Origin: Enterobacteria phage P4
Strand: one strand, 5' to 3'
DNA: 11,624 nucleotides
Sequence record: NC_001609.1
A program made the position numbers and the translations under genes. The notes below the pieces were generated by a model that was not told the origin of the DNA, made no database searches, and was given only the letters and a program-made list of their open reading frames with translations. Of the stretch, positions 1 through 11,460 are shown piece after piece (within the stretch, counting starts at the first letter, position 1; every line of letters begins with the position of its first letter).

Positions 1-19
1 GGCGAGGCGGGGAAAGCAC
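1..19 (+). other. cos left cohesive end (19-nt P2/P4-type 5' overhang sequence)
   Basis: Bases 1-19 are GGCGAGGCGGGGAAAGCAC, which I recall as the P2/P4 cohesive-end sequence. The right end of the window (about 11560-11624) carries GC-rich inverted repeats consistent with the terminase-recognition part of cos. Confidence 0.6.
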
Positions 20-246
20 CGCGCGCAAACCGACAAGTTAGTTAATTATTTGTGTAGTCAAAGTGCCTTCAGTACATACCTCGTTAATACATTGGAGCAT
101 AATGAAGAAAATCTATGGCCTATGGTCCAAAACTGTCTTTTTTGATGGCACTATCCTGAAAAATATGCAAAAAATAGATTGATGTAAGGTGGTTCTTGTC
201 AGTGTCGCAAGATCCTTAAGAATTCGTGGCATGAGAGAGTTAAAGG

Positions 247-648
247 ATGCTGAATCATGTATATGGATTAATTGGCGTTGTTGGGACCATAATCACTATT
301 GCTACTAGCTTCATCCGCAACCAAGATATTTCACAATGGTTGCTCGTTTGTTCTGGATGGTTAGCTGCTTTACTTATTGGATGGTTTACACACAGAACGA
401 TTAAAGCAATTAGCAACAACCACACGAATGTTATAAAAAGTAATATGGAGGTAATCAACAGTCATAATGAATCCAATCAAAACTTGATGGCTGAAAACAA
501 AGAATTGATTAAAGAACTTGCAAGAACTTCAGAACAGAAAGAGAAGATGGAAAGTATAGCTGCTTATCTTGCTACTCAGAACCCCCAAATTAACGCTATG
601 CCAAGAACAGCAAGCCGACCAGAAAATATCGATTCGGAGGCTAATTAA
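247..648 (+). CDS. gop: Gop, small two-transmembrane protein (host-killing in absence of Beta, per P4 literature)
   Basis: 133-aa ORF with ATG at 247 and only one in-frame Met near the start. Two hydrophobic helices (about residues 5-23 and 31-47) precede a charged, coiled-coil-like C-terminus. Stop TAA 646-648 sits 2 nt before the next ATG. Naming rests on recalled P4 order gop-beta-cII left of int. Confidence 0.65.
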   Translation: MLNHVYGLIGVVGTIITIATSFIRNQDISQWLLVCSGWLAALLIGWFTHRTIKAISNNHTNVIKSNMEVINSHNESNQNLMAENKELIKELARTSEQKEKMESIAAYLATQNPQINAMPRTASRPENIDSEAN

Positions 649-650
649 AT

Positions 651-1718
651 ATGAAAGTATATTTTGAAAATTACTCATACTATCCAGCCCTAAGAACACG
701 ATCAGCAGAAATGACCGGACTGAATAATTTATCATATGAGAATAAGAAAAAAATATTACCTTTAATTTCTTTGGGGAAATGGCCTCGCTCGGAAGAAATA
801 CAGGTATCGTTAGATAAAAGTTTAGAAGTGATGAGTAATCTCCCATTTATTTTGGATGTCACAAAGGATAATTCTCATCATTGCGCGTCAAGCTTCGAAC
901 TACTCTCTCCTGAGAATGGTTTTAAAAACTGGATAGAGTTTTGTTCCAGAAATGATAATATTATTCCAGTAGTCCAGATGCCGGATTCAGCAAAACTTAG
1001 AGATATATCTATCCAAGCCAGGGTTTTAGAGGAACTTAAAGGTTCAATTGCATTTAGAATTAGAAATCTAAATACAGACATTAATAAAACCCTGACGTCA
1101 CTAGTATCGATGAACTCTCCAGAAAATGCCATAGTTTTCATAGATTTGGGCTACATTAGAGGGAATGTATCTGCTATAACAGCTGCAGCAATAAATTCGA
1201 TTAATCAGATTAGAACTGAGATTCCTGAAGCCATAATTAGTGTGCTAGCAACAAGCTTCCCTAGTTCAGTTACAAATTTTTGCCGTGAAAATGGACAGTC
1301 CGGATATATTGATGTTATTGAGAGAGAATTGCATCAAAATATTGGTGGAAGTGATGTCGCTATTTATGGCGATCATGGTTCAATTCATTCAGTAGTGTAT
1401 GACAACATAATTGGGCGATATGTTCCTAGAATTGATATAGCGTTAAATGATTCATGGTATTTCGAGCGCCGCCCTGGGATGAATAAAGAAGGGTTCATTG
1501 AAGCTGCGAAATCAATTTTGGCAGAGTATCCACATTATCAAAGGGAGGACTCTTGGGGAGCTGCAATGATAAGAAATGCTGCTATAGGGGATATAGCAGG
1601 TATGGGAAGTCCAGCTAAATGGATTGCTGTTCGAGTGAATCTACACTTAAATAAGCAAATTGAGCTATCTGAAGCTCTACAGTATGGCTTTGATCATGAT
1701 GAGGAAGATCTTATCTAA
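651..1718 (+). CDS. beta: Beta protein (Beta_protein family), protects from Gop
   Basis: 355-aa ORF, ATG at 651 with GGAGG at 636-640, translationally coupled to gop. Clean single frame through an AT-rich region. Assigned as P4 beta by position and size; family assignment is from memory. Confidence 0.7.
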   Translation: MKVYFENYSYYPALRTRSAEMTGLNNLSYENKKKILPLISLGKWPRSEEIQVSLDKSLEVMSNLPFILDVTKDNSHHCASSFELLSPENGFKNWIEFCSRNDNIIPVVQMPDSAKLRDISIQARVLEELKGSIAFRIRNLNTDINKTLTSLVSMNSPENAIVFIDLGYIRGNVSAITAAAINSINQIRTEIPEAIISVLATSFPSSVTNFCRENGQSGYIDVIERELHQNIGGSDVAIYGDHGSIHSVVYDNIIGRYVPRIDIALNDSWYFERRPGMNKEGFIEAAKSILAEYPHYQREDSWGAAMIRNAAIGDIAGMGSPAKWIAVRVNLHLNKQIELSEALQYGFDHDEEDLI

Positions 1719-1749
1719 TAAAAAACTAGGGAAGGTTAGCCTTCCCTAG
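1718..1749 (-). terminator. Rho-independent terminator of leftward cII transcript, convergent with the gop-beta 3' end
   Basis: Perfect hairpin CTAGGGAAGG-TTAG-CCTTCCCTAG at 1726-1749. On the minus strand it is followed by a U-run (complement of A-run 1719-1725). It overlaps the cII stop codon (1746-1748) and lies immediately after the beta stop (1716-1718). Confidence 0.7.
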
Positions 1750-2540
1750 CCCACAACCCTTTTAAGTACTTTTTCCGGAATATAGGAAACATCATCGCCA
1801 TATTTCCTAACTATAGAGTCAACATCAACCTTATGGTATTCATTTAAAGATTTCTCCGAACAAGCCTTAAACTCAAACTTAACCAAAGAATTATTCCTTC
1901 TTTTAGCTTTGCTCAATAAGGCAAGATCGTTTATAGATATTTCTTGATTACCATGGAGTCTAGATAAAAAATCATTAGATGTCGCATGATACCTATTTTT
2001 AATAGATGTAATGACAAATTCTCTAATCTTGTTTAAAGATAACTTAGATGCCAAAACCTCAAGACAATCCCTATGTAGTTCATTTGAAAATGTAATTCCA
2101 TACTGATTAAGCAGATCTTTAAGCTCAGACTTAAGCAAAAAACCCAAATAAACAAATTTATTTAAGCGAGAGCAAACCCTTCCTTTTTGAATTATTTTAA
2201 AGCGTACGCTACTATTATTAGATTGAAATTCTACAACGCCAACATCTGATGAAACCCGTTTAGATACTTCACTGGTAAATTTTGGCGCGCACACAATTGT
2301 AACTTTTTCGAAGCTAGATTTAAAAATTTTTAACTGACCATCCAAGCGCTTAAGAGAGTCAAAATCGCTTTTTATTTCAAAAGCTTGTAGGCTTCCATTG
2401 GCAATAGCCAAATCAGCTCTTCTGCTCCAGTTAGCAACAACCATTTCATTAATGATCGTTGCATCACTAAGCATGCCTTTTTTATATAACCATTCAATTA
2501 GGGCTATTTTAACTTCCTGCTCTCGCAATAACTCAGCCAT
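1746..2540 (-). CDS. cII: cII protein, possible PD-(D/E)xK-type nuclease fold (inference)
   Basis: ORF track gives 1746..2555 with a GTG start and no visible SD; the first ATG is at 2540-2538 (MAELLREQ...), used here as the start. The N-terminal region contains E...RADL(x12)FEIK, resembling a D-(D/E)xK motif. Naming by position as the third nonessential P4 gene, transcribed leftward. Confidence 0.6.
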   Translation of the reverse strand: MAELLREQEVKIALIEWLYKKGMLSDATIINEMVVANWSRRADLAIANGSLQAFEIKSDFDSLKRLDGQLKIFKSSFEKVTIVCAPKFTSEVSKRVSSDVGVVEFQSNNSSVRFKIIQKGRVCSRLNKFVYLGFLLKSELKDLLNQYGITFSNELHRDCLEVLASKLSLNKIREFVITSIKNRYHATSNDFLSRLHGNQEISINDLALLSKAKRRNNSLVKFEFKACSEKSLNEYHKVDVDSIVRKYGDDVSYIPEKVLKRVVG

Positions 2541-2606
2541 GTTAATCACACTCACTTCACGTTGATTTTTATTATAGCAACTAACAATTAAAAACTCCAG
2601 ATTATG

Positions 2607-3926
2607 TTACTTAACACTCATTTTAAAAATCAACCAATAACTATTTTTATTTAAGTATTTCTTTGTATTTTGAATAATCATAAGGCTAATATATTTATTA
2701 CGGTTCATATCCAAATAATCAGCCCACCACTGCATCATTAAACGCCGCTCATCCAAATGCTCGGAGGTATGGATATATGCCGCACGTACATTATTACGCT
2801 CTGAGTGGCTCAGTTGCCTCTCTATCGCGTCATCACTCCATAACCCCGACTCCCCCAACGCACCACGCGCCATAGTCCTAAACCCATGCCCACACACCTC
2901 GGTTTTAGTATCATAGCCCATCGCACGCAATGCGCTGTTTACCGTGTTTTCACTCATAACCTTAGTTGCGTCATGATCCCCCGGAAAAAGCAGCTCTTTA
3001 TCACCACTAATCTGCTTTAACTGGTTTAATAAAATCATCGCCTGTCGACTAAGCGGAACGATATGTTCCTCTTTCATCTTCATGCCTCGGTACGAATAAC
3101 GCACACCTTTAATTTCTTCTCGCTTTGCAGGTATACGCCAAAGAGATTTATCGAAGTCGAATTCATCCCAACGTGCGAAACGTAATTCACTGGAACGCAC
3201 AAAAGTTAGCAAGGAAAGCTTGACCGCAATCCGTGTCATTACACGGCCACGATATGCAGCAAGACGTGCAAGAAACTCAGGGAATCGGCTAGAAGGTAAA
3301 GCAGGGTAATGTCGCGCTTTGGTTGTCGATAGCGCACCAGCCATATCGCTGGCTGGATTTGAGTCGATGTAATCGTTCTGTACGGCATAACGCATAATGG
3401 CTGTGACGCGCTGTTGCAGGCGCTGAGCGACATCGTGTTTGCCACTGGCATCAACTTTTTTAATCGGGGCTAACAGGTGGCTGGTTTTAAGCTGCCGAAT
3501 GTCGGACGAACCGATATGAGGGAATATATAAAGCTCAAGATAGCGAAGAACGCGCGATCGATGGTCTTCACTCCAGCGCTTGTTACTGGCATGCCATTCT
3601 CGGGCGATAGCTTCAAAAGTATATGCCCCCGAATTCTCGGCCCGAGCTTCTTTTTGTACGACTTTTGGGTCTATGCCCTGTACTAAAAGCTTTTTAGCTT
3701 CATCGCGTTTTGCTCTTGCCTGAGCAAGCGTCACAGTAGGCCAAACACCAAACGCAAGACGATCCTCTTTTTTGTCAGAGGGACGTCTGTATTTCATGCG
3801 CCAGTATTTGGAACCTTTGGCCGAAACCTCAAGATACAAACCACCACCATCGGCCATTTTGTAGGTTTTGTCTTTTGGCTTTGCGGTCTCGACCTGTCTG
3901 GCGTTGAGCTTCATTTGGGGGCACAT
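2607..3926 (-). CDS. int: P4-type tyrosine integrase (site-specific recombinase, phage integrase family)
   Basis: 439-aa ORF. N-terminus MKLNARQVETAKPKDKTYKMADGGGLYLEV is the typical P4-integrase arm-binding region; catalytic signature HGFRT...RAAYIHT near the C-terminus. First ATG at 3926, second at 3914. The C-terminal tail runs into AT-rich sequence. Confidence 0.9.
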   Translation of the reverse strand: MCPQMKLNARQVETAKPKDKTYKMADGGGLYLEVSAKGSKYWRMKYRRPSDKKEDRLAFGVWPTVTLAQARAKRDEAKKLLVQGIDPKVVQKEARAENSGAYTFEAIAREWHASNKRWSEDHRSRVLRYLELYIFPHIGSSDIRQLKTSHLLAPIKKVDASGKHDVAQRLQQRVTAIMRYAVQNDYIDSNPASDMAGALSTTKARHYPALPSSRFPEFLARLAAYRGRVMTRIAVKLSLLTFVRSSELRFARWDEFDFDKSLWRIPAKREEIKGVRYSYRGMKMKEEHIVPLSRQAMILLNQLKQISGDKELLFPGDHDATKVMSENTVNSALRAMGYDTKTEVCGHGFRTMARGALGESGLWSDDAIERQLSHSERNNVRAAYIHTSEHLDERRLMMQWWADYLDMNRNKYISLMIIQNTKKYLNKNSYWLIFKMSVK

Positions 3927-3965
3927 TTCTAATCGAAGTTAAGATGCCCCCAATTATGCCCCCAA
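3916..3965. repeat. Cluster of three (A/G)TGCCCCC(A) repeats, candidate integrase arm-type binding sites
   Basis: GTGCCCCCAA inverted at 3916-3925 (overlapping the int start codon), ATGCCCCCAA at 3944-3953 and 3956-3965. Two more copies lie at 4154-4173 on the other side of the att core. Confidence 0.5.
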
Positions 3966-4077
3966 TGATATCCGGATTTCAACGGACAACCTCGGAAGAC
4001 GCAGGACGAAAAAATCGCTGCAAGCATTGATTTTAAAGGGATATTTGGACTTTCTCGGATGGTCTTGGAAGTAAGAA

Positions 4078-4101
4078 TGGTGCCGAAGGCCGGACTCAAA
4101 C
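4078..4101 (-). other. attP core region with homology to the 3' end of a tRNA (leuX-type tRNA-Leu)
   Basis: TGGTGCCGAAGGCCGGACTCAAAC is the reverse complement of a tRNA T-arm/acceptor 3' end (...GTTTGAGTCCGGCCTTCGGCACCA). Only the 3' segment is present, as expected for a phage att core that regenerates the tRNA 3' end on integration. Confidence 0.55.
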
Positions 4102-4153
4102 ATCAAAATAAGTTAATGATAAAAAACAAATAATAAAACACAACAATGAAATA

Positions 4154-4173
4154 TGCCCCCTTTTGTGCCCCCA
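4154..4173. repeat. Two further (A/G)TGCCCCC repeats on the far side of the att core
   Basis: ATGCCCCC at 4154-4161 and GTGCCCCCA at 4166-4173, the same motif as the 3916-3965 cluster, bracketing the tRNA-like core. Confidence 0.5.
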
Positions 4174-4290
4174 CTGTTTTTCTGACCAATCTATTTTCAG
4201 CCCATCAATAAATCGGAAAGTTAAATCATTTTTAATCAGTAAGTTTGGATCCGTAGCTCGGATCCAAACCAGTGCATCTTTTATCCACAT

Positions 4291-4590
4291 AAAAAATTTT
4301 TTTTCGAAAGAACTGTTCACACTGTTCACCTTTCTGTTTTCTCCTTTTATTTCAGAGTGATAGGTGGTGAATAATGGGTGAAGGGTGAACATTCGATTCT
4401 TCACCTCCGGCATTCTGCCGATGTGACTCATACCGGTGATTAATCCTCCGCACTGAAATCACTCAGGAAGAAAAAAGTTTTTTTTGATTTGATTGTTCAC
4501 ACTGTTCACCTTTCGTTTTTCTCTTTTAATTTCAGTGTGATAACGGGTGAATATACGGTGAAGGGTGAACAGTGGATTGTTCACCTTCGG
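4291..4590. repeat. crr (cis replication region): two 120-bp direct repeats carrying alpha-binding type I iterons
   Basis: Copies at 4291-4410 and 4471-4590 are near-identical, with an exact 180-bp period (ACTGTTCACC at 4321 and 4501) and a 60-bp unrelated spacer. Each copy holds several TGTTCACC / GGTGAAYA octamers in both orientations. Confidence 0.75.
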
Positions 4591-4603
4591 GGGATATCGG
4601 GAT

Positions 4604-4628
4604 AAAAAAAGACCGGCAGATGCCGGTC
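4604..4628 (-). terminator. Rho-independent terminator downstream of alpha
   Basis: Hairpin GACCGGCAGATGCCGGTC at 4611-4628 followed on the minus strand by a 7-U run (complement of A7 at 4604-4610), a few nt past the alpha stop (4636-4638). Confidence 0.65.
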
Positions 4629-4635
4629 AGGTGGG

Positions 4636-6969
4636 TCAGGCTGTTGTAGGGTCGTCACATTTTGGCAGCCAGTCGCCGTAGCTTTCCTCTTTCAGCGTCA
4701 GGTTGGTCTGTATCCCCTGTTTGGTATGGCGTTTCTCGTAATTCAGTCCGTATTCCTTCAGCATCACCGGCAGCCCCAGCCCGAACATTTTCAGACTGAG
4801 TACATTCCGGTAGCCGTTTGCCTCCATGTAGGCCAGATAGGCGTGATAGAGGTATTTACGGTAATTGCGCGGGATGATACTGGCGTTCCCCATATACATG
4901 CCGCTGGTCTGCGGCAGGGTTTCCAGATAGCCGATAAAATCAAACGTCGGGTCGGCATCCCGTTTGATGTTCAGTGCCTCGTCTGAGTTCTGCTGGGACT
5001 GAAGCAGTGACCGGGCGAGCATCGGGTCGCTGAACTTCTGCATCAGGTGACGCACGATGACCGCCAGCTCGCGGGTGATTTTGTCCTTAAGCTGCGGGTC
5101 GCGCTCCTGCGGGGCTATCTGTTCCGGGAAGTGAATAATCACCCGTCGGCGTGACACGCCGCCGCTGCGGTCGGTGAAGCGCATCGGGTTATTGTTCACG
5201 GCCAGAATCACCGCCGGGATGTGCGTGGAGTACGCATCCCGGTATTTCGGGTCAACGGACACCGCATCGCCGCCGGTGATGGCCTTGAGTCCGGCACCGT
5301 CGCCGCTCCATTTTTCCTGGTCCGGCAGGCGTATCAGTGAGAAGCCAGTTAACGCGGCACGTTCACGCGGGGATTCCAGCGTCTCGATGGTGGCCGACGT
5401 GGCGTTATCCTCCCCGGCCAGCAGGGTGGCTATTTCGGCCATGATACTTTTGCCGCTGCCGCCGGGACCGGTCACCTCCAGAAAGAGCTGCCAGTCGTAG
5501 CGGTTTGCCAGCACCATAAACAGTGCAGCCAGAATCACGTCGCGTTTTTCCGCACGGCCACCGGCGGCACGGTCAAGCCAGCGCCAGAAGGCGGGGGCGT
5601 GGGTTTCCAGCGTTTCACCGTCCACCGGCGGGGTGAAATCCACATCGCACAGGGTGCGCATCCAGTGTGACGGACTGTGCGGGTGGAACGTGCCGTTCTG
5701 CGTGTCGAGCACGCCGTTACGAAAGCCAATCAGGCGGCGGGAGGGGGCTTCCTGCTGCGGAATAATCAGCTTCAGGGTATCCACCACGGAGGCCACCTTC
5801 CCGGAGGAGAACGGCGCACGCAGACGCTGAAACAGCCCGGCCACATCCCGGGCAAAGTCCTGTGGCGGCAGCACCTTCCAGACACCATTTTCATAGCGGG
5901 ACAGAAGCTGGCCGTTGGCATCGACCGCGAGCGCCTCGCCGTAATGCTCATAGATACGCATGGCCTTTTCGCTGGTACTCATGGCGGAAAACTCCGCTTC
6001 GCTCATGGTGTCGAACGGGCTTTCAGCCGGTGGCCGGATGGCATCGTAAATGGCCTTACGGGTGGCCTCCCCGCCGTACTGCGTGAAGGCATCATTCCAG
6101 TCACCGAAGACCGGCGGCAGGGCAACAACACCTTCACACGCATCTGCGGCTGCGGCGGCTTTTTTCTGGCCGTCACCACTGAGGTCACGGTCAGCGGCAA
6201 GGACAATCTGACAGGCGGGGTGCTTCTGCCGGGCAAGGCTGGCCAGAGAAAGGAGGTTCACGGAAGAAAGCGCCACCATCACCGTTTCACCGGTCAGGTG
6301 ATGTACGGTAAGTGCGGTCGCGTATCCCTCCGCTATCCACAGACGTTTTCCGGCCTGATTCTGTCCTTCAAGGGTGTGACAGGTGCCCCTGACCTGTCCG
6401 CCTTTCAGGGTGCGCTTACGGCCGTCAGCACTGATTAACTGAAGGTTAACCAGTTCGCCGCTGTCGTCATACAGTGGCACCACAAGGTCACCGGCGCGCC
6501 AGCTCACGCCACCGGCTCTGTGTGTGCCGGTCAGCATCCGGCATTCCCGGCCGGGAAAGCCCTTGCGGGTCAGGTAGGCGTTACCGGTTCCGGTACGGGT
6601 TTTCGCCATCAGGGTTTGTGCCAGTGCGGCGGCGTTCTTCCGGGCAGCGTCTGTTTCATCAACGGCGGCGGTCGTCACTGCCGGGTCAGCCGGTGGCAGG
6701 CTGCCGGTCACGGCAGCCACCTTTGCGGCCGCGTCGGACGGGGAAACACCAAAAACCTTTTCAACCAGTTTCAGGCCGTCACCGGCACCACACTGATTGC
6801 AGTACCAGGTGCCGCGCCCCTCCCTGTCATCAAAACGGAAGCGGTCACTCCCGCCACAGACCGGACAGGGCTGATGACGGTTCTTCAGCACCTGAATCCC
6901 CAGCGCCGGGAGAATACGCGGCCAGTGGCCGAGCGCATGGCTGACGGTGGCGGTTACGTTCATTTTCAT
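4636..6969 (-). CDS. alpha: Alpha protein: bifunctional DNA primase / helicase with C-terminal iteron-binding domain (P4 replication protein)
   Basis: 777-aa ORF. N-terminal zinc-ribbon CPVCGG...(x)...YCNQCG, primase region, then Walker A GPGGSGKS (D5-like helicase). AAGGAG SD 8 nt upstream of the ATG at 6969. Length matches recalled P4 alpha. Confidence 0.92.
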   Translation of the reverse strand: MKMNVTATVSHALGHWPRILPALGIQVLKNRHQPCPVCGGSDRFRFDDREGRGTWYCNQCGAGDGLKLVEKVFGVSPSDAAAKVAAVTGSLPPADPAVTTAAVDETDAARKNAAALAQTLMAKTRTGTGNAYLTRKGFPGRECRMLTGTHRAGGVSWRAGDLVVPLYDDSGELVNLQLISADGRKRTLKGGQVRGTCHTLEGQNQAGKRLWIAEGYATALTVHHLTGETVMVALSSVNLLSLASLARQKHPACQIVLAADRDLSGDGQKKAAAAADACEGVVALPPVFGDWNDAFTQYGGEATRKAIYDAIRPPAESPFDTMSEAEFSAMSTSEKAMRIYEHYGEALAVDANGQLLSRYENGVWKVLPPQDFARDVAGLFQRLRAPFSSGKVASVVDTLKLIIPQQEAPSRRLIGFRNGVLDTQNGTFHPHSPSHWMRTLCDVDFTPPVDGETLETHAPAFWRWLDRAAGGRAEKRDVILAALFMVLANRYDWQLFLEVTGPGGSGKSIMAEIATLLAGEDNATSATIETLESPRERAALTGFSLIRLPDQEKWSGDGAGLKAITGGDAVSVDPKYRDAYSTHIPAVILAVNNNPMRFTDRSGGVSRRRVIIHFPEQIAPQERDPQLKDKITRELAVIVRHLMQKFSDPMLARSLLQSQQNSDEALNIKRDADPTFDFIGYLETLPQTSGMYMGNASIIPRNYRKYLYHAYLAYMEANGYRNVLSLKMFGLGLPVMLKEYGLNYEKRHTKQGIQTNLTLKEESYGDWLPKCDDPTTA

Positions 6970-6983
6970 GGTGTTGTTCTCCT

Positions 6984-7304
6984 TCAGTGCAGTACCGGCG
7001 CTTTTATGTGACGGGCACAGAGTTCATCCATCACAACCAGCCCGAGAAAGGACAGCGACGGCGCGGCCTTCAGGGGGCCGGATTCCATTAAATCTTCCAG
7101 CAGGGCACAGGCTATCTGACGCCCTTTTTCCTCACCGTGCTGGCGCAGATAAAAGCCTTCCAGCTCAGCGGCGATGGCCGCCTCCAGTGACTCAAGGGTG
7201 AGATGCGGGTAGCGGTGCTGACGTTCGCACACGGTCAGCCAGGCACAGGCGACAGCGCGACGGTAAAGGGCAGCGCGTAAGACGGGCGGTAAGGGTGTTT
7301 TCAT
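6984..7304 (-). CDS. Hypothetical protein (106 aa) immediately upstream of alpha
   Basis: ORF with ATG at 7304 preceded by GGGAGAA SD; stop 14 nt before the alpha start. Function not recognised. Confidence 0.65.
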
Positions 7305-7439
7305 TTGCTTTTCTCCCTGTGACAGATGACTGCATTCCGTGCCGGTTGCATTAACTGATAAGGCATATCTGCGTCTCCTGAAGACGTGCGTATCCCTGCG
7401 CGAATACGCACATTTAATTTTTCGGGGGTCGTTTTTTAA

Positions 7440-7895
7440 TTACAGATAATTGCGGTAACTGTTATCCGGGGTGGTTTCCGGGTCAGGCTCCGTGCGGGGA
7501 ATTTCCCGCCATTCCCGCGCCACCGGTGCTGCCCGGCTGACCGGAACAGTGTCCTGCGGGTAAATATCCAGATATTTTTCCCGCCATTTCTGTAATTCCG
7601 GGTCTCCGGCCATTTCTTTCAGTACCGCATGCCGGTTTACGGGGCTGCGTTTAAACAGGTCAGGACGGTCACAGGTAAATTCCCGCAGAAAACGCCCCAG
7701 CGGGATGTCTGTGGTGCGTCCGTCAGCGAGGATACGCACAAGGATACTGAATTTACGGCGGTACGGGTTCCAGACAATGTCCGGGCAGCGGTACGGCATT
7801 TCCCACGGAATACCGTCTTCCAGAATGCCGACCACGGCCACATCGGGAAAACCGGCAGAACGGTAAATCTCACCGGGCTGGGGAAAATCAAACAT
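7440..7895 (-). CDS. orf151, conserved P4 protein of unknown function
   Basis: 151-aa ORF; the ATG at 7895-7893 lies 2 nt after the stop of the upstream ORF. Size matches the P4 ORF known by this name. Confidence 0.7.
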   Translation of the reverse strand: MFDFPQPGEIYRSAGFPDVAVVGILEDGIPWEMPYRCPDIVWNPYRRKFSILVRILADGRTTDIPLGRFLREFTCDRPDLFKRSPVNRHAVLKEMAGDPELQKWREKYLDIYPQDTVPVSRAAPVAREWREIPRTEPDPETTPDNSYRNYL

Positions 7896-8175
7896 GCGTC
7901 CTGTCTCCCCGGTCTTTCTGCTGGGCGAGAAAATCGCGGCACAGGCCTTTGGCTTTCAGCTCATTCAGCACAAAATCAATATCTTCATTCAGGTAGCTGA
8001 AAATATGTGGAATGTAGAGCTGATGCAGGCCGGAGAGTTCACGGTGAATCAAATCACCCCCAACAAACCGGGATACGGCGCTGGCGCGGTTGAGCTTATG
8101 GTAAGCCTCAATGCTGAGGTGTTCACGGGCGTCATGACGCGCTGAGACGGTCTGAGGGGCTTTTTTATTACGCAC
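7888..8175 (-). CDS. eps: Epsilon, candidate antirepressor that derepresses the helper prophage (95 aa if GTG start)
   Basis: C-terminal part of the 7888..8460 reading frame. A GTG at 8175-8173 is preceded by GGAGG with 6-nt spacing and overlaps the kil stop by 8 nt, giving 95 aa. The alternative ATG at 8220 (110 aa) would overlap kil extensively. Identity from position between kil and orf151. Confidence 0.5.
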
Positions 8176-8365
8176 GGGACACCTCCACCACCGGCAGACG
8201 GGCAGCAAGGGAGAGCACATAGTCACGGACAAGGGAACGGCGGGCACTGCGTTCATCACCGGCGACGGTGCGAAGCATACAGATACGGGGATGACGGTCT
8301 GCGCGACGGACAGCCGCAAACACAAAGACAAATTCAGGGTGTGAGGGGGTAAGGGTTGTAGCCAT
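8168..8365 (-). CDS. kil: Kil, first translated gene of the early leftward operon (65 aa)
   Basis: Last 65 codons of the 8168..8812 frame ([12 protein letters not shown]...EVSRA). ATG at 8365-8363 is preceded by AGGAGG with about 8-nt spacing; the upstream part of the frame lacks an SD and covers the untranslated leader. Name and size from recalled P4 literature. Confidence 0.5.
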
Positions 8366-8419
8366 GATGGCAGCCTCCTGTGAATAGCAAATAACGCTAT
8401 CGCCGGAGTTCTCACGCTC

Positions 8420-8505
8420 GATGGCGATAGCCCAGACGGGGGTGAGAATACCGGCTTCACAGGATACCGGCCAGCCCGGAGGCTGCCCCGCCTGAGCTAC
8501 CATTG
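8420..8505 (-). ncRNA. cI: Candidate cI immunity RNA region (approximate)
   Basis: Untranslated leader between the predicted PLE and kil. Contains a segment (plus-strand GGGGGTGAGAATACC, 8437-8451) complementary to a 10-mer direct repeat GTTCTCACGC found upstream (8660-8669) and downstream (8408-8417), matching the seqA/seqB/seqC logic of P4 immunity. Boundaries are approximate and from memory. Confidence 0.3.
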
Positions 8506-8689
8506 ACTCTGCGGCATAATGAGCGGACGCGGGCAGGATGCACGGAATGCCATCTGCACGACTGACCACACACCACACCATAATCTGGCGCTCTGTGGCA
8601 TTGATTGCGACACAAAAAAAGACGCGTGGCGCGTCATATGTCGCCTGTGAATTGCTCGGGTTCTCACGCCCGGCTGCCGATTTTGCGGC

Positions 8690-8729
8690 AGGCGAAAAAC
8701 TATATCCGCAAATGCCGGAAAAAGGCAAG
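8690..8729 (-). promoter_or_regulatory. Candidate early leftward promoter PLE (sigma70-like)
   Basis: On the minus strand, TTGCCT (-35, plus 8729-8724), about 18-nt spacer, TATAGT (-10, plus 8704-8699); predicted start near 8690. Lies just downstream of the vis stop. Confidence 0.3.
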
Positions 8730-8763
8730 CCAGAAAAAGGGAGTTTTTGCAGAGCGGGCATCA

Positions 8764-9030
8764 TCATGCGTCGTACCCCCGTTTGCGTCCGGCAATGCGT
8801 CCGGCCATCCATGCGGTGACTTCAGAGTGCAGCCAGGCCACATTTTTACCGCCAAGACTCACCTGCGGCGGAAATTCCCCCTTACGGATGAGTTCGTAGA
8901 TGGTCGAGCGTGACAGGCCGCACAGGTGCATCACTTCCGGCACACGTAAAAAACGCTCCTGCGTGATGTCCGGCAGCGGCATCAGTGGCGTCACTGGGGC
9001 GGGAGACGGGGAAGAAAAAACAGCTTGCAT
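8764..9030 (-). CDS. vis: Vis, AlpA/Xis-like helix-turn-helix regulator and excision factor (orf88)
   Basis: 88-aa ORF with ATG at 9030 and GAGG SD 7 nt upstream. Contains the AlpA-family HTH ...[30 protein letters not shown].... First gene downstream of the late leftward promoter. Confidence 0.8.
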
Positions 9031-9132
9031 CGGGCTACCTCGTTAATGTCCATACAGCACCGGATAAGTCCGTCCGGCTTCGGGTAGCGCTTTATTTTGT
9101 GAATATTTTCAGCAGACGCAACAGGGGGGATT

Positions 9133-9150
9133 TGTTCAGGCTGTCTTACA
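9133..9150 (-). promoter_or_regulatory. TGT-N12-ACA dyad: Delta/Ogr-type activator site of the late leftward promoter PLL
   Basis: TGTTCAGGCTGTCTTACA at 9133-9150, the P2/P4 late-promoter activator dyad, about 100 bp upstream of the vis start in the leftward direction. Confidence 0.5.
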
Positions 9151-9179
9151 ATGGCTGTGTGTTTTTTGTTCATCTCCAC

Positions 9180-9209
9180 TTAAAGTCATTTAAAGCCACT
9201 TAAAGCAAT
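9180..9209. promoter_or_regulatory. Three tandem cox-box-like repeats (TTAAAGNNAN) at exact 10-bp spacing
   Basis: TTAAAGTCAT / TTAAAGCCAC / TTAAAGCAAT at 9180-9189, 9190-9199 and 9200-9209, upstream of the PLL activator dyad. Resembles binding sites for helper P2 Cox (and possibly P4 Vis). Confidence 0.45.
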
Positions 9210-9308
9210 TTGTAATTTTTATAGTGAAATACAAATCGTTTCTTCTTATTCATTCCCGGCGAATTAATAAAAACAAACAGTAGTAAACAGCACAAAAAGC
9301 CCATCAAC

Positions 9309-9414
9309 GGGTGAACAGTGGTGAACAGACGGTGAACAGTCATTACTGCGATTGTTCACCCTTTAACTTACTGTATTACTTATCTTTTTTATTAAGGTGA
9401 ACAGAGGTGAACAG
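9309..9414. other. ori: origin of replication with six alpha-binding type I iterons and an AT-rich spacer
   Basis: GGTGAACA at 9310-9317, 9320-9327, 9331-9338, 9396-9403 and 9406-9413, plus inverted TGTTCACC at 9354-9361. AT-rich stretch 9362-9395. Same octamer as in crr. Confidence 0.65.
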
Positions 9415-9492
9415 TAAAATATAAAAAAACAAACAGTAAGCCGGTTTTTCCTGCGACCTTTTCCTGGCTTGCCGGTCTGAGGATGAGTCTCC

Positions 9493-9510
9493 TGTGTCAG
9501 GGCTGGCACA
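9493..9510 (+). promoter_or_regulatory. TGT-N12-ACA dyad: Delta/Ogr-type activator site of the late rightward promoter Psid
   Basis: TGTGTCAGGGCTGGCACA at 9493-9510, about 75-90 bp upstream of the sid ATG, consistent with an activator site centred near -55. Confidence 0.55.
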
Positions 9511-9582
9511 TCTGCAATGCGTCGTGTTGTTGTCCGGTGTACGTCACAATTTTCTTAACCTGAAGTGACGAGGAGCCGGAAA

Positions 9583-10317
9583 ATGTCTGACCACACTATC
9601 CCTGAATATCTGCAACCCGCACTGGCACAACTGGAAAAGGCCAGAGCCGCCCATCTTGAGAACGCCCGCCTGATGGATGAGACCGTCACGGCCATTGAAC
9701 GGGCAGAGCAGGAAAAAAATGCGCTGGCGCAGGCCGACGGAAACGACGCTGACGACTGGCGCACGGCCTTTCGTGCAGCCGGTGGTGTCCTGAGCGACGA
9801 GCTGAAACAGCGCCACATTGAGCGCGTGGCACGCCGGGAGCTGGTACAGGAATATGACAATCTGGCCGTGGTGCTGAATTTCGAACGTGAACGCCTGAAA
9901 GGGGCGTGTGACAGCACGGCCACCGCCTACCGGAAGGCACATCATCACCTTCTGAGTCTGTATGCAGAGCATGAGCTGGAACACGCCCTGAATGAAACCT
10001 GTGAGGCGCTTGTCCGGGCAATGCATCTGAGCATTCTGGTACAGGAAAATCCGCTCGCCAACACCACCGGCCATCAGGGCTACGTCGCACCGGAAAAGGC
10101 TGTCATGCAGCAGGTGAAATCATCGCTGGAACAGAAAATTAAACAGATGCAAATCAGCCTCACCGGCGAGCCGGTTCTCCGGCTGACCGGACTGTCAGCG
10201 GCAACACTCCCGCACATGGATTATGAGGTGGCAGGCACACCGGCACAGCGCAAGGTGTGGCAGGACAAAATAGACCAGCAGGGAGCAGAGCTTAAGGCCA
10301 GAGGGCTGCTGTCATGA
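9583..10317 (+). CDS. sid: Sid, external scaffold / capsid size determination protein
   Basis: ORF track starts at GTG 9565, but the ATG at 9583 is preceded by AGGAG (9571-9575) and gives 244 aa (MSDHTIPEYL...), matching recalled Sid length. Helical, Ala/Glu/Leu-rich sequence. Confidence 0.85.
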   Translation: MSDHTIPEYLQPALAQLEKARAAHLENARLMDETVTAIERAEQEKNALAQADGNDADDWRTAFRAAGGVLSDELKQRHIERVARRELVQEYDNLAVVLNFERERLKGACDSTATAYRKAHHHLLSLYAEHELEHALNETCEALVRAMHLSILVQENPLANTTGHQGYVAPEKAVMQQVKSSLEQKIKQMQISLTGEPVLRLTGLSAATLPHMDYEVAGTPAQRKVWQDKIDQQGAELKARGLLS

Positions 10318-10814
10318 TTTACTGTCCGTCGTGTGGACATGTTGCTCACACCCGTCGCGCACATTTCATGGACGATGGCACCAAGATAATGATTGCACAG
10401 TGCCGGAATATTTATTGCTCTGCGACATTTGAAGCGAGTGAAAGCTTTTTCTCTGACAGTAAAGATTCAGGAATGGAATACATTTCAGGCAAACAGAGAT
10501 ACCGCGATTCACTGACGTCAGCCTCCTGCGGTATGAAACGCCCGAAAAGAATGCTTGTTACCGGATATTGTTGTCGGAGATGTAAAGGCCTTGCACTGTC
10601 AAGAACATCGCGGCGTCTGTCTCAGGAAGTCACCGAGCGTTTTTATGTGTGCACGGATCCGGGCTGTGGTCTGGTGTTTAAAACGCTTCAGACCATCAAC
10701 CGCTTCATTGTCCGCCCGGTCACGCCGGACGAACTGGCAGAACGCCTGCATGAAAAACAGGAACTGCCGCCAGTACGGTTAAAAACACAATCATATTCGC
10801 TGCGTCTGGAATGA
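10314..10814 (+). CDS. delta: Delta, late-gene transcriptional activator (tandem Ogr-like zinc fingers)
   Basis: 166-aa ORF; ATG overlaps the sid stop (ATGA). Two C-x2-C...C-x4-C zinc-finger units: CPSCGH...CRNIYC and CRRCKG...CTDPGC. Confidence 0.9.
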   Translation: MIYCPSCGHVAHTRRAHFMDDGTKIMIAQCRNIYCSATFEASESFFSDSKDSGMEYISGKQRYRDSLTSASCGMKRPKRMLVTGYCCRRCKGLALSRTSRRLSQEVTERFYVCTDPGCGLVFKTLQTINRFIVRPVTPDELAERLHEKQELPPVRLKTQSYSLRLE

Positions 10815-10887
10815 GGGCTGCCGGTTAACACCGGCCGTCGCCGCACACCGTATTTTTATTCTTCAGCATGATGAGAAAGAGATAACG

Positions 10888-11460
10888 ATGGAAAGCACAG
10901 CCTTACAGCAGGCCTTTGACACCTGTCAGAATAACAAAGCAGCATGGCTGCAACGCAAAAATGAGCTGGCAGCGGCCGAACAGGAATATCTGCGGCTTCT
11001 GTCAGGAGAAGGCAGAAACGTCAGTCGCCTGGACGAATTACGCAATATTATCGAAGTCAGAAAATGGCAGGTGAATCAGGCCGCCGGTCGTTATATTCGT
11101 TCGCATGAAGCCGTTCAGCACATCAGCATCCGCGACCGGCTGAATGATTTTATGCAGCAGCACGGCACAGCACTGGCGGCCGCACTGGCACCGGAGCTGA
11201 TGGGCTACAGTGAGCTGACGGCCATTGCCCGAAACTGTGCCATACAGCGTGCCACAGATGCCCTGCGTGAAGCCCTTCTGTCCTGGCTTGCGAAGGGTGA
11301 AAAAATTAATTATTCCGCACAGGATAGCGACATTTTAACGACCATCGGATTCAGGCCTGACGTGGCTTCGGTGGATGACAGCCGTGAAAAATTCACCCCT
11401 GCGCAGAACATGATTTTTTCGCGTAAAAGTGCGCAACTGGCATCACGTCAGTCAGTGTAA
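10888..11460 (+). CDS. psu: Psu, polarity suppression protein (Rho antagonist / capsid decoration)
   Basis: 190-aa ORF, last gene of the sid-delta-psu operon. Size and position match recalled P4 psu. Confidence 0.88.
   Translation: MESTALQQAFDTCQNNKAAWLQRKNELAAAEQEYLRLLSGEGRNVSRLDELRNIIEVRKWQVNQAAGRYIRSHEAVQHISIRDRLNDFMQQHGTALAAALAPELMGYSELTAIARNCAIQRATDALREALLSWLAKGEKINYSAQDSDILTTIGFRPDVASVDDSREKFTPAQNMIFSRKSAQLASRQSV

Follow-up and report, generated by a model that had tools for sequence, protein, structure and literature searches.

The alpha protein of satellite phage P4 is the founding member of the 'P4 family' of primase-helicases. Its tripartite domain order and the DnaG-type nature of its primase have been stated before (PMC2777425), and primase, helicase and origin-recognition activities are attributed to it by Ziegelin et al. 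(1993, EMBO J 12:3703), as cited in PMC8628076 and PMC9611036. Other described enzymes to which alpha can be compared are PriRep5 of SaPI5, one of the Staphylococcus aureus pathogenicity islands (SaPIs), which, like alpha, is a self-loading superfamily 3 (SF3) helicase of a satellite fused to a primase (PDB 7OLA/7OM0; PMC9371898), and vaccinia virus D5, which has been described with 'an elusive helicase activity' (PMC9611036). Here, we analyzed a stretch of 11,624 bases of Enterobacteria phage P4 (NC_001609.1; the window in the following), in which an open reading frame (ORF) at positions 4636-6969 had been proposed, from the DNA letters alone, to encode alpha as a single-chain primase-helicase (the original prediction). 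We are practically certain that this ORF represents the P4 alpha gene and encodes the element's single self-sufficient replication initiator. Judged by its sequence, the gene is already known: no difference from the deposited P4 alpha was detected, and the window appears to hold nothing new. The value of the case is that of a calibration point only, a textbook multifunctional replication initiator having been recognised from raw sequence.

Identity and domain architecture of alpha

The whole window was compared with a phage collection using megablast. It was matched by four partial GenBank records, all of Enterobacteria phage P4, which tile positions 1-11070 with identities of 99.5-100% (Table 1). 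The window appears to be the complete genome of P4, for which the same length of 11,624 bp has been published. Positions 4260-7322 show 100% DNA identity to X05623.1, deposited as 'Bacteriophage P4 alpha gene and cis replication region crr', and the coding sequence CAA29111.1 of this record, annotated as 'alpha gene (pot. P4-specific DNA primase) (AA 1-777)', is 100% identical to the ORF. The polypeptide of 777 amino acids (aa) originally described was recovered with exactly the same coordinates, and it contains CPVCGG, YCNQCG and GPGGSGKS in the order given there. While these coordinates were right, the strand had been left unnamed; the minus-strand frame is open, and the many stops in the plus-strand reading of the same positions place the gene on the minus strand. 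The ribosome-binding site AGGAG directly follows the TGA stop codon of the upstream ORF106, and a hairpin with a run of T residues (4628-4611) is found just past the alpha stop codon. The annotated start of alpha is supported, since the N-terminus MKMNVT is conserved in close relatives. Nothing that was found in the analysis spoke against the identification of the ORF as alpha.

Table 1. Positions of the features discussed in the text, with the evidence for each (residue numbers refer to alpha).
Feature	Coordinates	Strand	Evidence and remarks
alpha coding sequence, primase + SF3 helicase + origin-binding domain in one chain	4636..6969	minus	777 aa, ATG start; ORF list and translation
Zinc-ribbon domain, aa 30-66	6772..6882	minus	Pfam PF08273 Zn_Ribbon_Prim, E=1.9e-18, full-length profile match
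Toprim catalytic core, aa 210-299	6073..6342	minus	Pfam PF13362 Toprim_3, E=1.2e-12; PF01751 Toprim, E=1.2e-6
D5_N domain before helicase core, aa 336-467	5569..5964	minus	Pfam PF08706, E=4.7e-12, covering positions 1-142 of the 145 in the profile
SF3 helicase P-loop NTPase core, aa 500-608	5146..5472	minus	Pfam PF19263 DUF5906, E=2.5e-9
C-terminal winged-helix origin-binding domain (predicted), aa 671-770	4660..4959	minus	PDB 1KA8 chain A, 100% over all 100 residues, E=1.1e-63
alpha ribosome-binding site AGGAG	6979..6983	minus	9 nt before ATG; 'pot. ribosome binding site (alpha)' in X05623.1
alpha terminator hairpin	4611..4628	minus	7-bp stem with 6 G-C pairs, then TTTTTTT; terminator scan; 'put. 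alpha transcription terminator' in X05623.1
crr, two 120-bp direct repeats (4291-4410 and 4471-4590), 82% identical	4291..4590		Repeat finder; annotated in X05623.1
ori, with A+T-rich flanks and six exact TGTTCACC iterons, five of them oriented alike and the sixth opposite	9310..9413		Pattern search
ORF106, directly upstream of alpha, same orientation	6984..7304	minus	ORF list; annotated in X05623.1; Pfam DUF5375, E=2.9e-63
gop	247-648	plus	PADLOC defence model, E=4.8e-70
beta	651-1718	plus	PADLOC defence model, E=8.2e-188; weaker match PD-Lambda-2_C
cII (PADLOC 'cll')	1746-2555	minus	PADLOC defence model, E=3.5e-113
C4 antisense RNA	8420-8507	minus	Rfam, 74.9 bits, above gathering score; P4 immunity region
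isrK Hfq-binding RNA	8615-8692	minus	Rfam, 60.8 bits, above gathering score; P4 immunity region
M27748.1	1-2640		P4 record, megablast
X05947.1	2557-4252		P4 record, megablast
X05623.1	4260-7322		P4 record, megablast
X02534.1	7250-11070		P4 record, megablast

The domain content of alpha was assessed using Pfam, following the search for primase, D5_N and P-loop nucleoside triphosphatase (NTPase) domains that the original prediction had proposed. Five domains exceed their gathering scores, following each other in the sequence Zn_Ribbon_Prim, Toprim_3, D5_N, DUF5906 and Pox_D5, and the proposed architecture was thereby borne out. In addition, PHROG 2249 ('DNA primase') covers aa 18-775 (804.5 bits, E=2.9e-241).

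A central D5-like helicase with a Walker A motif, as predicted, is supported by the D5_N and DUF5906 matches, by the NCBIfam model TIGR01613 ('phage/plasmid primase, P4 family'), which matches aa 414-721 with 108.7 bits and thus exactly at its cut-off of 108.7 bits (E=2.4e-31), and by similarity to the PriRep5 structure 7OLA. The SF3 motifs follow each other in the expected order: Walker A GPGGSGKS (501-508), the Walker B-like LPDQE (548-552), motif C AVNNN (590-594) and RRR (R607-R609). The alignment with 7OLA spans residues 384-724 of alpha and brings the NTPase motifs into register; GPGGSGKS lies opposite GDGNNGKG (Walker A), LPDQE opposite GDDVP (Walker B), AVNNNP opposite QSTNGMP (motif C) and SRRRVIIHF opposite LRRLLIVPF (arginine finger). 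Based on this alignment, we conclude that the helicase of alpha is an SF3 enzyme of the AAA+ type. Paired arginines of P4 alpha have been noted before (PMC2777425), and a 3'-5' polarity is attributed to the protein (PMC9611036). A PADLOC scan of alpha gave no match to a defence family.

For the C-terminal region, Pfam PF03288 (Pox_D5) was matched by aa 670-768 (E=3.6e-16), and the winged-helix nature of this domain has been described (PMC2777425). The original prediction had assigned binding of the ori and crr iterons to this region 'by P4 precedent', which is no mere analogy, as the DNA is that of P4 itself. Both the identity of aa 671-770 to 1KA8 and the confinement of the iterons to crr and ori (see below) agree with the predicted role of the domain in iteron binding.

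Conservation and the nature of the primase half

Relatives of alpha were collected by scanning a species-representative genome collection, which yielded 184 relatives, nearly all from Enterobacterales. From the 80 that were retained, 77 loci provided full-length proteins for an alignment, with 57-99% identity to P4 alpha. Besides, of 5426 complete E. coli genomes, 1065 carry a full-length homologue and 1154 some relative. In the alignment of 77 homologues, 211 of the 777 positions are invariant, and a subset of 22 sequences (A1) gives the same picture of conservation. Mean conservation is highest in the SF3 core (0.91), followed among the named domains by the zinc ribbon (0.85); the least conserved long stretch is aa 67-209 (0.59). 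Invariant residues of the helicase are G501-G504, G506, K507, S508, D550, E552, N592, N593 and R607-R609. As a side observation, four loci (L003, L004, L005 and L039), whose alpha is 98-99% identical to that of P4, are situated on 4-6 kb contigs of metagenome-assembled genomes labelled Ferruginibacter, Clostridiales, Ruminococcus or 'bacterium'. These occurrences are almost certainly mis-binned E. coli P4-like DNA and not indicative of real hosts; for three 99%-identical hits with non-enterobacterial labels, found on contigs of 4-5 kb, mis-binning is probable.

The N-terminal zinc-ribbon primase region of the original prediction was confirmed by the Zn_Ribbon_Prim and Toprim_3 matches. However, the zinc ribbon, although present, is only the accessory part of this region, and the catalytic core is a DnaG-type Toprim domain with EGYATA and DxD motifs. 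The zinc ligands are Cys35 and Cys38 in CPVCGG (aa 35-40) together with Cys57 and Cys60 in YCNQCG (aa 56-61). All four cysteines are invariant in the A1 alignment and 99% conserved in the 77 homologues. In the Toprim part, where matches to Toprim and Toprim_2 overlap that to Toprim_3, we find EGYATA at 214-219, including E214, and D260-R-D262. Residues E214, G215, Y216, T218, D260 and D262 are invariant in the 77 homologues. By these families and motifs, the alpha primase is of the bacterial DnaG/Toprim kind and not an archaeo-eukaryotic primase (AEP).

An AEP (prim-pol) domain would be expected if the whole chain were an enzyme of the type of poxvirus D5 or ORF904 of the Sulfolobus plasmid pRN1. 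Alpha does possess D5_N and Pox_D5 domains, and PMC2777425 and PMC9611036 group it with D5 and ORF904 on the helicase side. Nevertheless, no AEP or prim-pol family is among the Pfam matches at E<=0.01, the families matched by the N-terminal half are Zn_Ribbon_Prim and three of the Toprim group, and the Toprim residues E214 and D260/D262 are invariant. As Pfam shows only zinc-ribbon and Toprim families in the N-terminal half, an AEP-type primase was rejected, and we regard the probability of such an enzyme as negligible. Consequently, the label 'D5-like' of the original prediction is appropriate for the helicase and for the C-terminal Pox_D5 domain, but it does not extend to the primase, which is not of the AEP type of poxvirus D5.

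Even a primase of the DnaG kind could be a decayed remnant, with functional helicase and origin-binding parts and with priming left to the host DnaG. The low conservation of aa 67-209 would fit such decay, as would the fact that a solved primase relative is not detectable by sequence. On the other hand, among homologues with as little as 57% identity, the zinc-ligand cysteines, the EGY-T residues and D260/D262 remain invariant or 99% conserved, from which we conclude that the catalytic site of the primase is under purifying selection. Further, primase activity of alpha is reported in the work of Ziegelin et al. mentioned above, as cited in the two later papers. Hence, there is next to no chance that the primase has decayed, and a functional DnaG-type primase remains our reading.

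Neither a solved relative of aa 1-335 nor a structure of full-length alpha was detectable when PDB was searched with the sequence and with the A1 profile. The profile search returned only 1KA8 and 7OLA, and hits to L37Ae zinc ribbons and HPr-like proteins at E>0.05 were considered noise. A single-sequence AlphaFold2 model of alpha was too poor for a fold search (predicted local distance difference test score, pLDDT, 37.3; predicted template modelling score, pTM, 0.22). The folds of the primase and helicase parts, including that of aa 1-335, are therefore predicted from profile hidden Markov model matches. The segments to which the tools gave no assignment are aa 67-209, between the zinc ribbon and Toprim, which has neither a Pfam family nor a solved relative, and the short linkers 300-335 and 609-669. 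We see a slight chance only that aa 67-209 carries an undescribed function, e.g., in contacting the helper phage or parts of the host replisome, instead of only forming the N-terminal subdomain in an RNA-polymerase domain of the DnaG kind.

Finally, a plus-strand gene or a chance long ORF at these coordinates, as might be suspected from a G+C content of 60.9%, which favours long spurious ORFs, and from several overlapping plus-strand ORFs of 108-253 aa, can be discarded, given the many stops in the plus-strand frame and a minus-strand product with matches to five curated domain families, with identity to a fragment that has been crystallised and with conservation over its full length in hundreds of genomes.

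Iterons at crr, ori and homologous loci

The octamer TGTTCACC occurs exactly 11 times on both strands of the window, and all copies are inside crr (positions 4323, 4384, 4503, 4564 and 4578) or ori (positions 9310, 9320, 9331, 9353, 9396 and 9406). By simple arithmetic, about 0.35 copies of an 8-mer are expected by chance on both strands of 11.6 kb. When one mismatch is allowed, 23 matches are found compared to 8.9 expected, and a count of 23 was reached in 0 of 200 shuffles. The crr region, which adjoins alpha downstream (approx. 45 nt past the stop codon), holds five exact and five one-mismatch octamers in both orientations. The ori cluster is located approx. 2.3 kb upstream of the alpha start codon, in an area for which X02534.1 carries the annotation 'put. 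ori consensus sequence'.

Two further observations concern the surroundings of the iterons. First, an ATG-initiated ORF of 111 aa (4096-4431, minus strand) overlaps the first crr repeat and is not annotated in X05623.1; running through iteron DNA, it is probably not a gene. Second, three tandem CCACTTAAAG-like units with a spacing of 10 bp are present at 9176-9211, to the left of the ori iterons and to the right of the gene for the AlpA-family regulator. These units could be a regulator binding site in a divergent promoter region.

At the homologous loci, exact TGTTCACC octamers are found at a density of 2.34 per kb in the 500 nt that follow the alpha homologue, compared to 0.144 per kb within the gene and 0.018 per kb on its upstream side. 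Downstream, an exact octamer is found in 33 of 74 loci and the 7-mer core TGTTCAC in 52 of 74, so that a crr-like iteron block downstream of alpha is common, though not universal. Since 22 of the 74 loci do not even contain TGTTCAC, some P4-like elements have diverged iterons or are without crr at this place.

Exact iterons also occur within the gene itself: GGTGAACA is found inside the alpha homologue in 11 of the 77 loci (L003-L082), at codons approx. 580-590. The corresponding one-mismatch copy in P4 (5193-5200) coincides with the codons for A-V-N-N in motif C of the SF3 core (GTG AAC A). Due to this position on the motif C codons, we rejected internal binding sites as an explanation, and the likeness to an iteron is most likely a coincidence of coding.

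Neighbouring genes, proposed mechanism and known systems

ORF106 is presumably cnr, the regulator of copy number which acts on alpha. Cnr-resistant mutations of alpha are reported to affect T675, G732 and L737 in the C-terminal domain. Counted in our translation, alpha residues 675, 732 and 737 are indeed T, G and L, which would fit an action of Cnr on the DNA-binding domain. A role of cnr in copy-number control is described in PMC8628076.

The other genes of the window fit P4. Pfam recognised a tyrosine integrase, the epsilon 'derepression' protein, the AlpA-family regulator and an Ogr/Delta zinc-finger protein, and sid and psu are present according to the annotation of the GenBank records. 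The genes gop, beta and cII, each of which was matched by a PADLOC defence model (Table 1), fall within the int-psu defence hotspot of P4-like satellites (PMC13586616). Base composition differs along the window, with 60.9% G+C in alpha, 39.7% in the left 4.6 kb (1-4635, comprising gop, beta, cII, int and crr) and 53.7% in the rest. This suggests that the left arm, the hotspot of defence cargo, does not share its evolutionary origin with the core for replication and hijacking. In the immunity region, ORFs 7888-8460 and 8168-8812 are unlikely to be genes as listed, because the C4 and isrK RNAs sit inside them. We take the C4 antisense RNA to be, probably, the CI immunity RNA. The window begins with GGCGAGGCGGGGAAAGCAC, presumably the P2/P4 cos end.

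Taken together, the following mechanism can be proposed for alpha. The winged-helix domain would recognise the TGTTCACC iterons of ori and of crr, and the module of D5_N and SF3 AAA+ core (aa approx. 336-610) would assemble into a ring. The SF3 motor would then unwind the DNA in 3'-to-5' direction by NTP hydrolysis, using K507, D550/E552, N592/N593 and the arginines 607-609. RNA primers would be laid by the DnaG-type primase, i.e., by the zinc ribbon together with the Toprim domain and its residues E214 and D260/D262, and the alpha-made primers would be extended by a host polymerase. In the plasmid state, the product of ORF106 (cnr) would restrain alpha. That the ring is a hexamer, what each of the named residues does in catalysis and in which order the events at the origin take place are inferred.

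Among known systems, gp4 of phage T7 resembles alpha in joining a zinc-ribbon and Toprim (DnaG-type) primase to a hexameric replicative helicase in a single chain. Unlike that of alpha, however, the T7 gp4 helicase belongs to superfamily 4 (DnaB/RecA-like), moves 5'-to-3' and has no origin-binding domain. Vaccinia virus D5 differs from alpha in the opposite half of the protein, as its primase is of the AEP type, for which PMC9611036 cites Iyer et al. In the remainder, D5 is arranged as alpha is, with D5_N followed by an SF3 AAA+ helicase and a C-terminal domain of the Pox_D5 type (PMC9611036). The pRN1 protein ORF904 also shares a feature of the helicase, having two neighbouring arginines at the arginine-finger position as in alpha, whereas its primase is a prim/pol (AEP) domain in contrast to the DnaG/Toprim type of alpha (PMC2777425).

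PriRep5 of SaPI5 can be aligned over aa 359-739 of alpha (profile E=1.6e-10). This similarity comprises D5_N, helicase and winged-helix only, and the N-terminal primase part of PriRep5 does not align with alpha. In PriRep5, the C-terminal winged-helix recognises iterons directly downstream of its own gene (PMC9371898), which corresponds to the placement of crr in P4. The iterons of the SaPIs are penta- or hexanucleotides (PMC9371898), compared to the octamer of P4, and in P4 a further cluster of iterons, ori, is situated at a distance from the gene.

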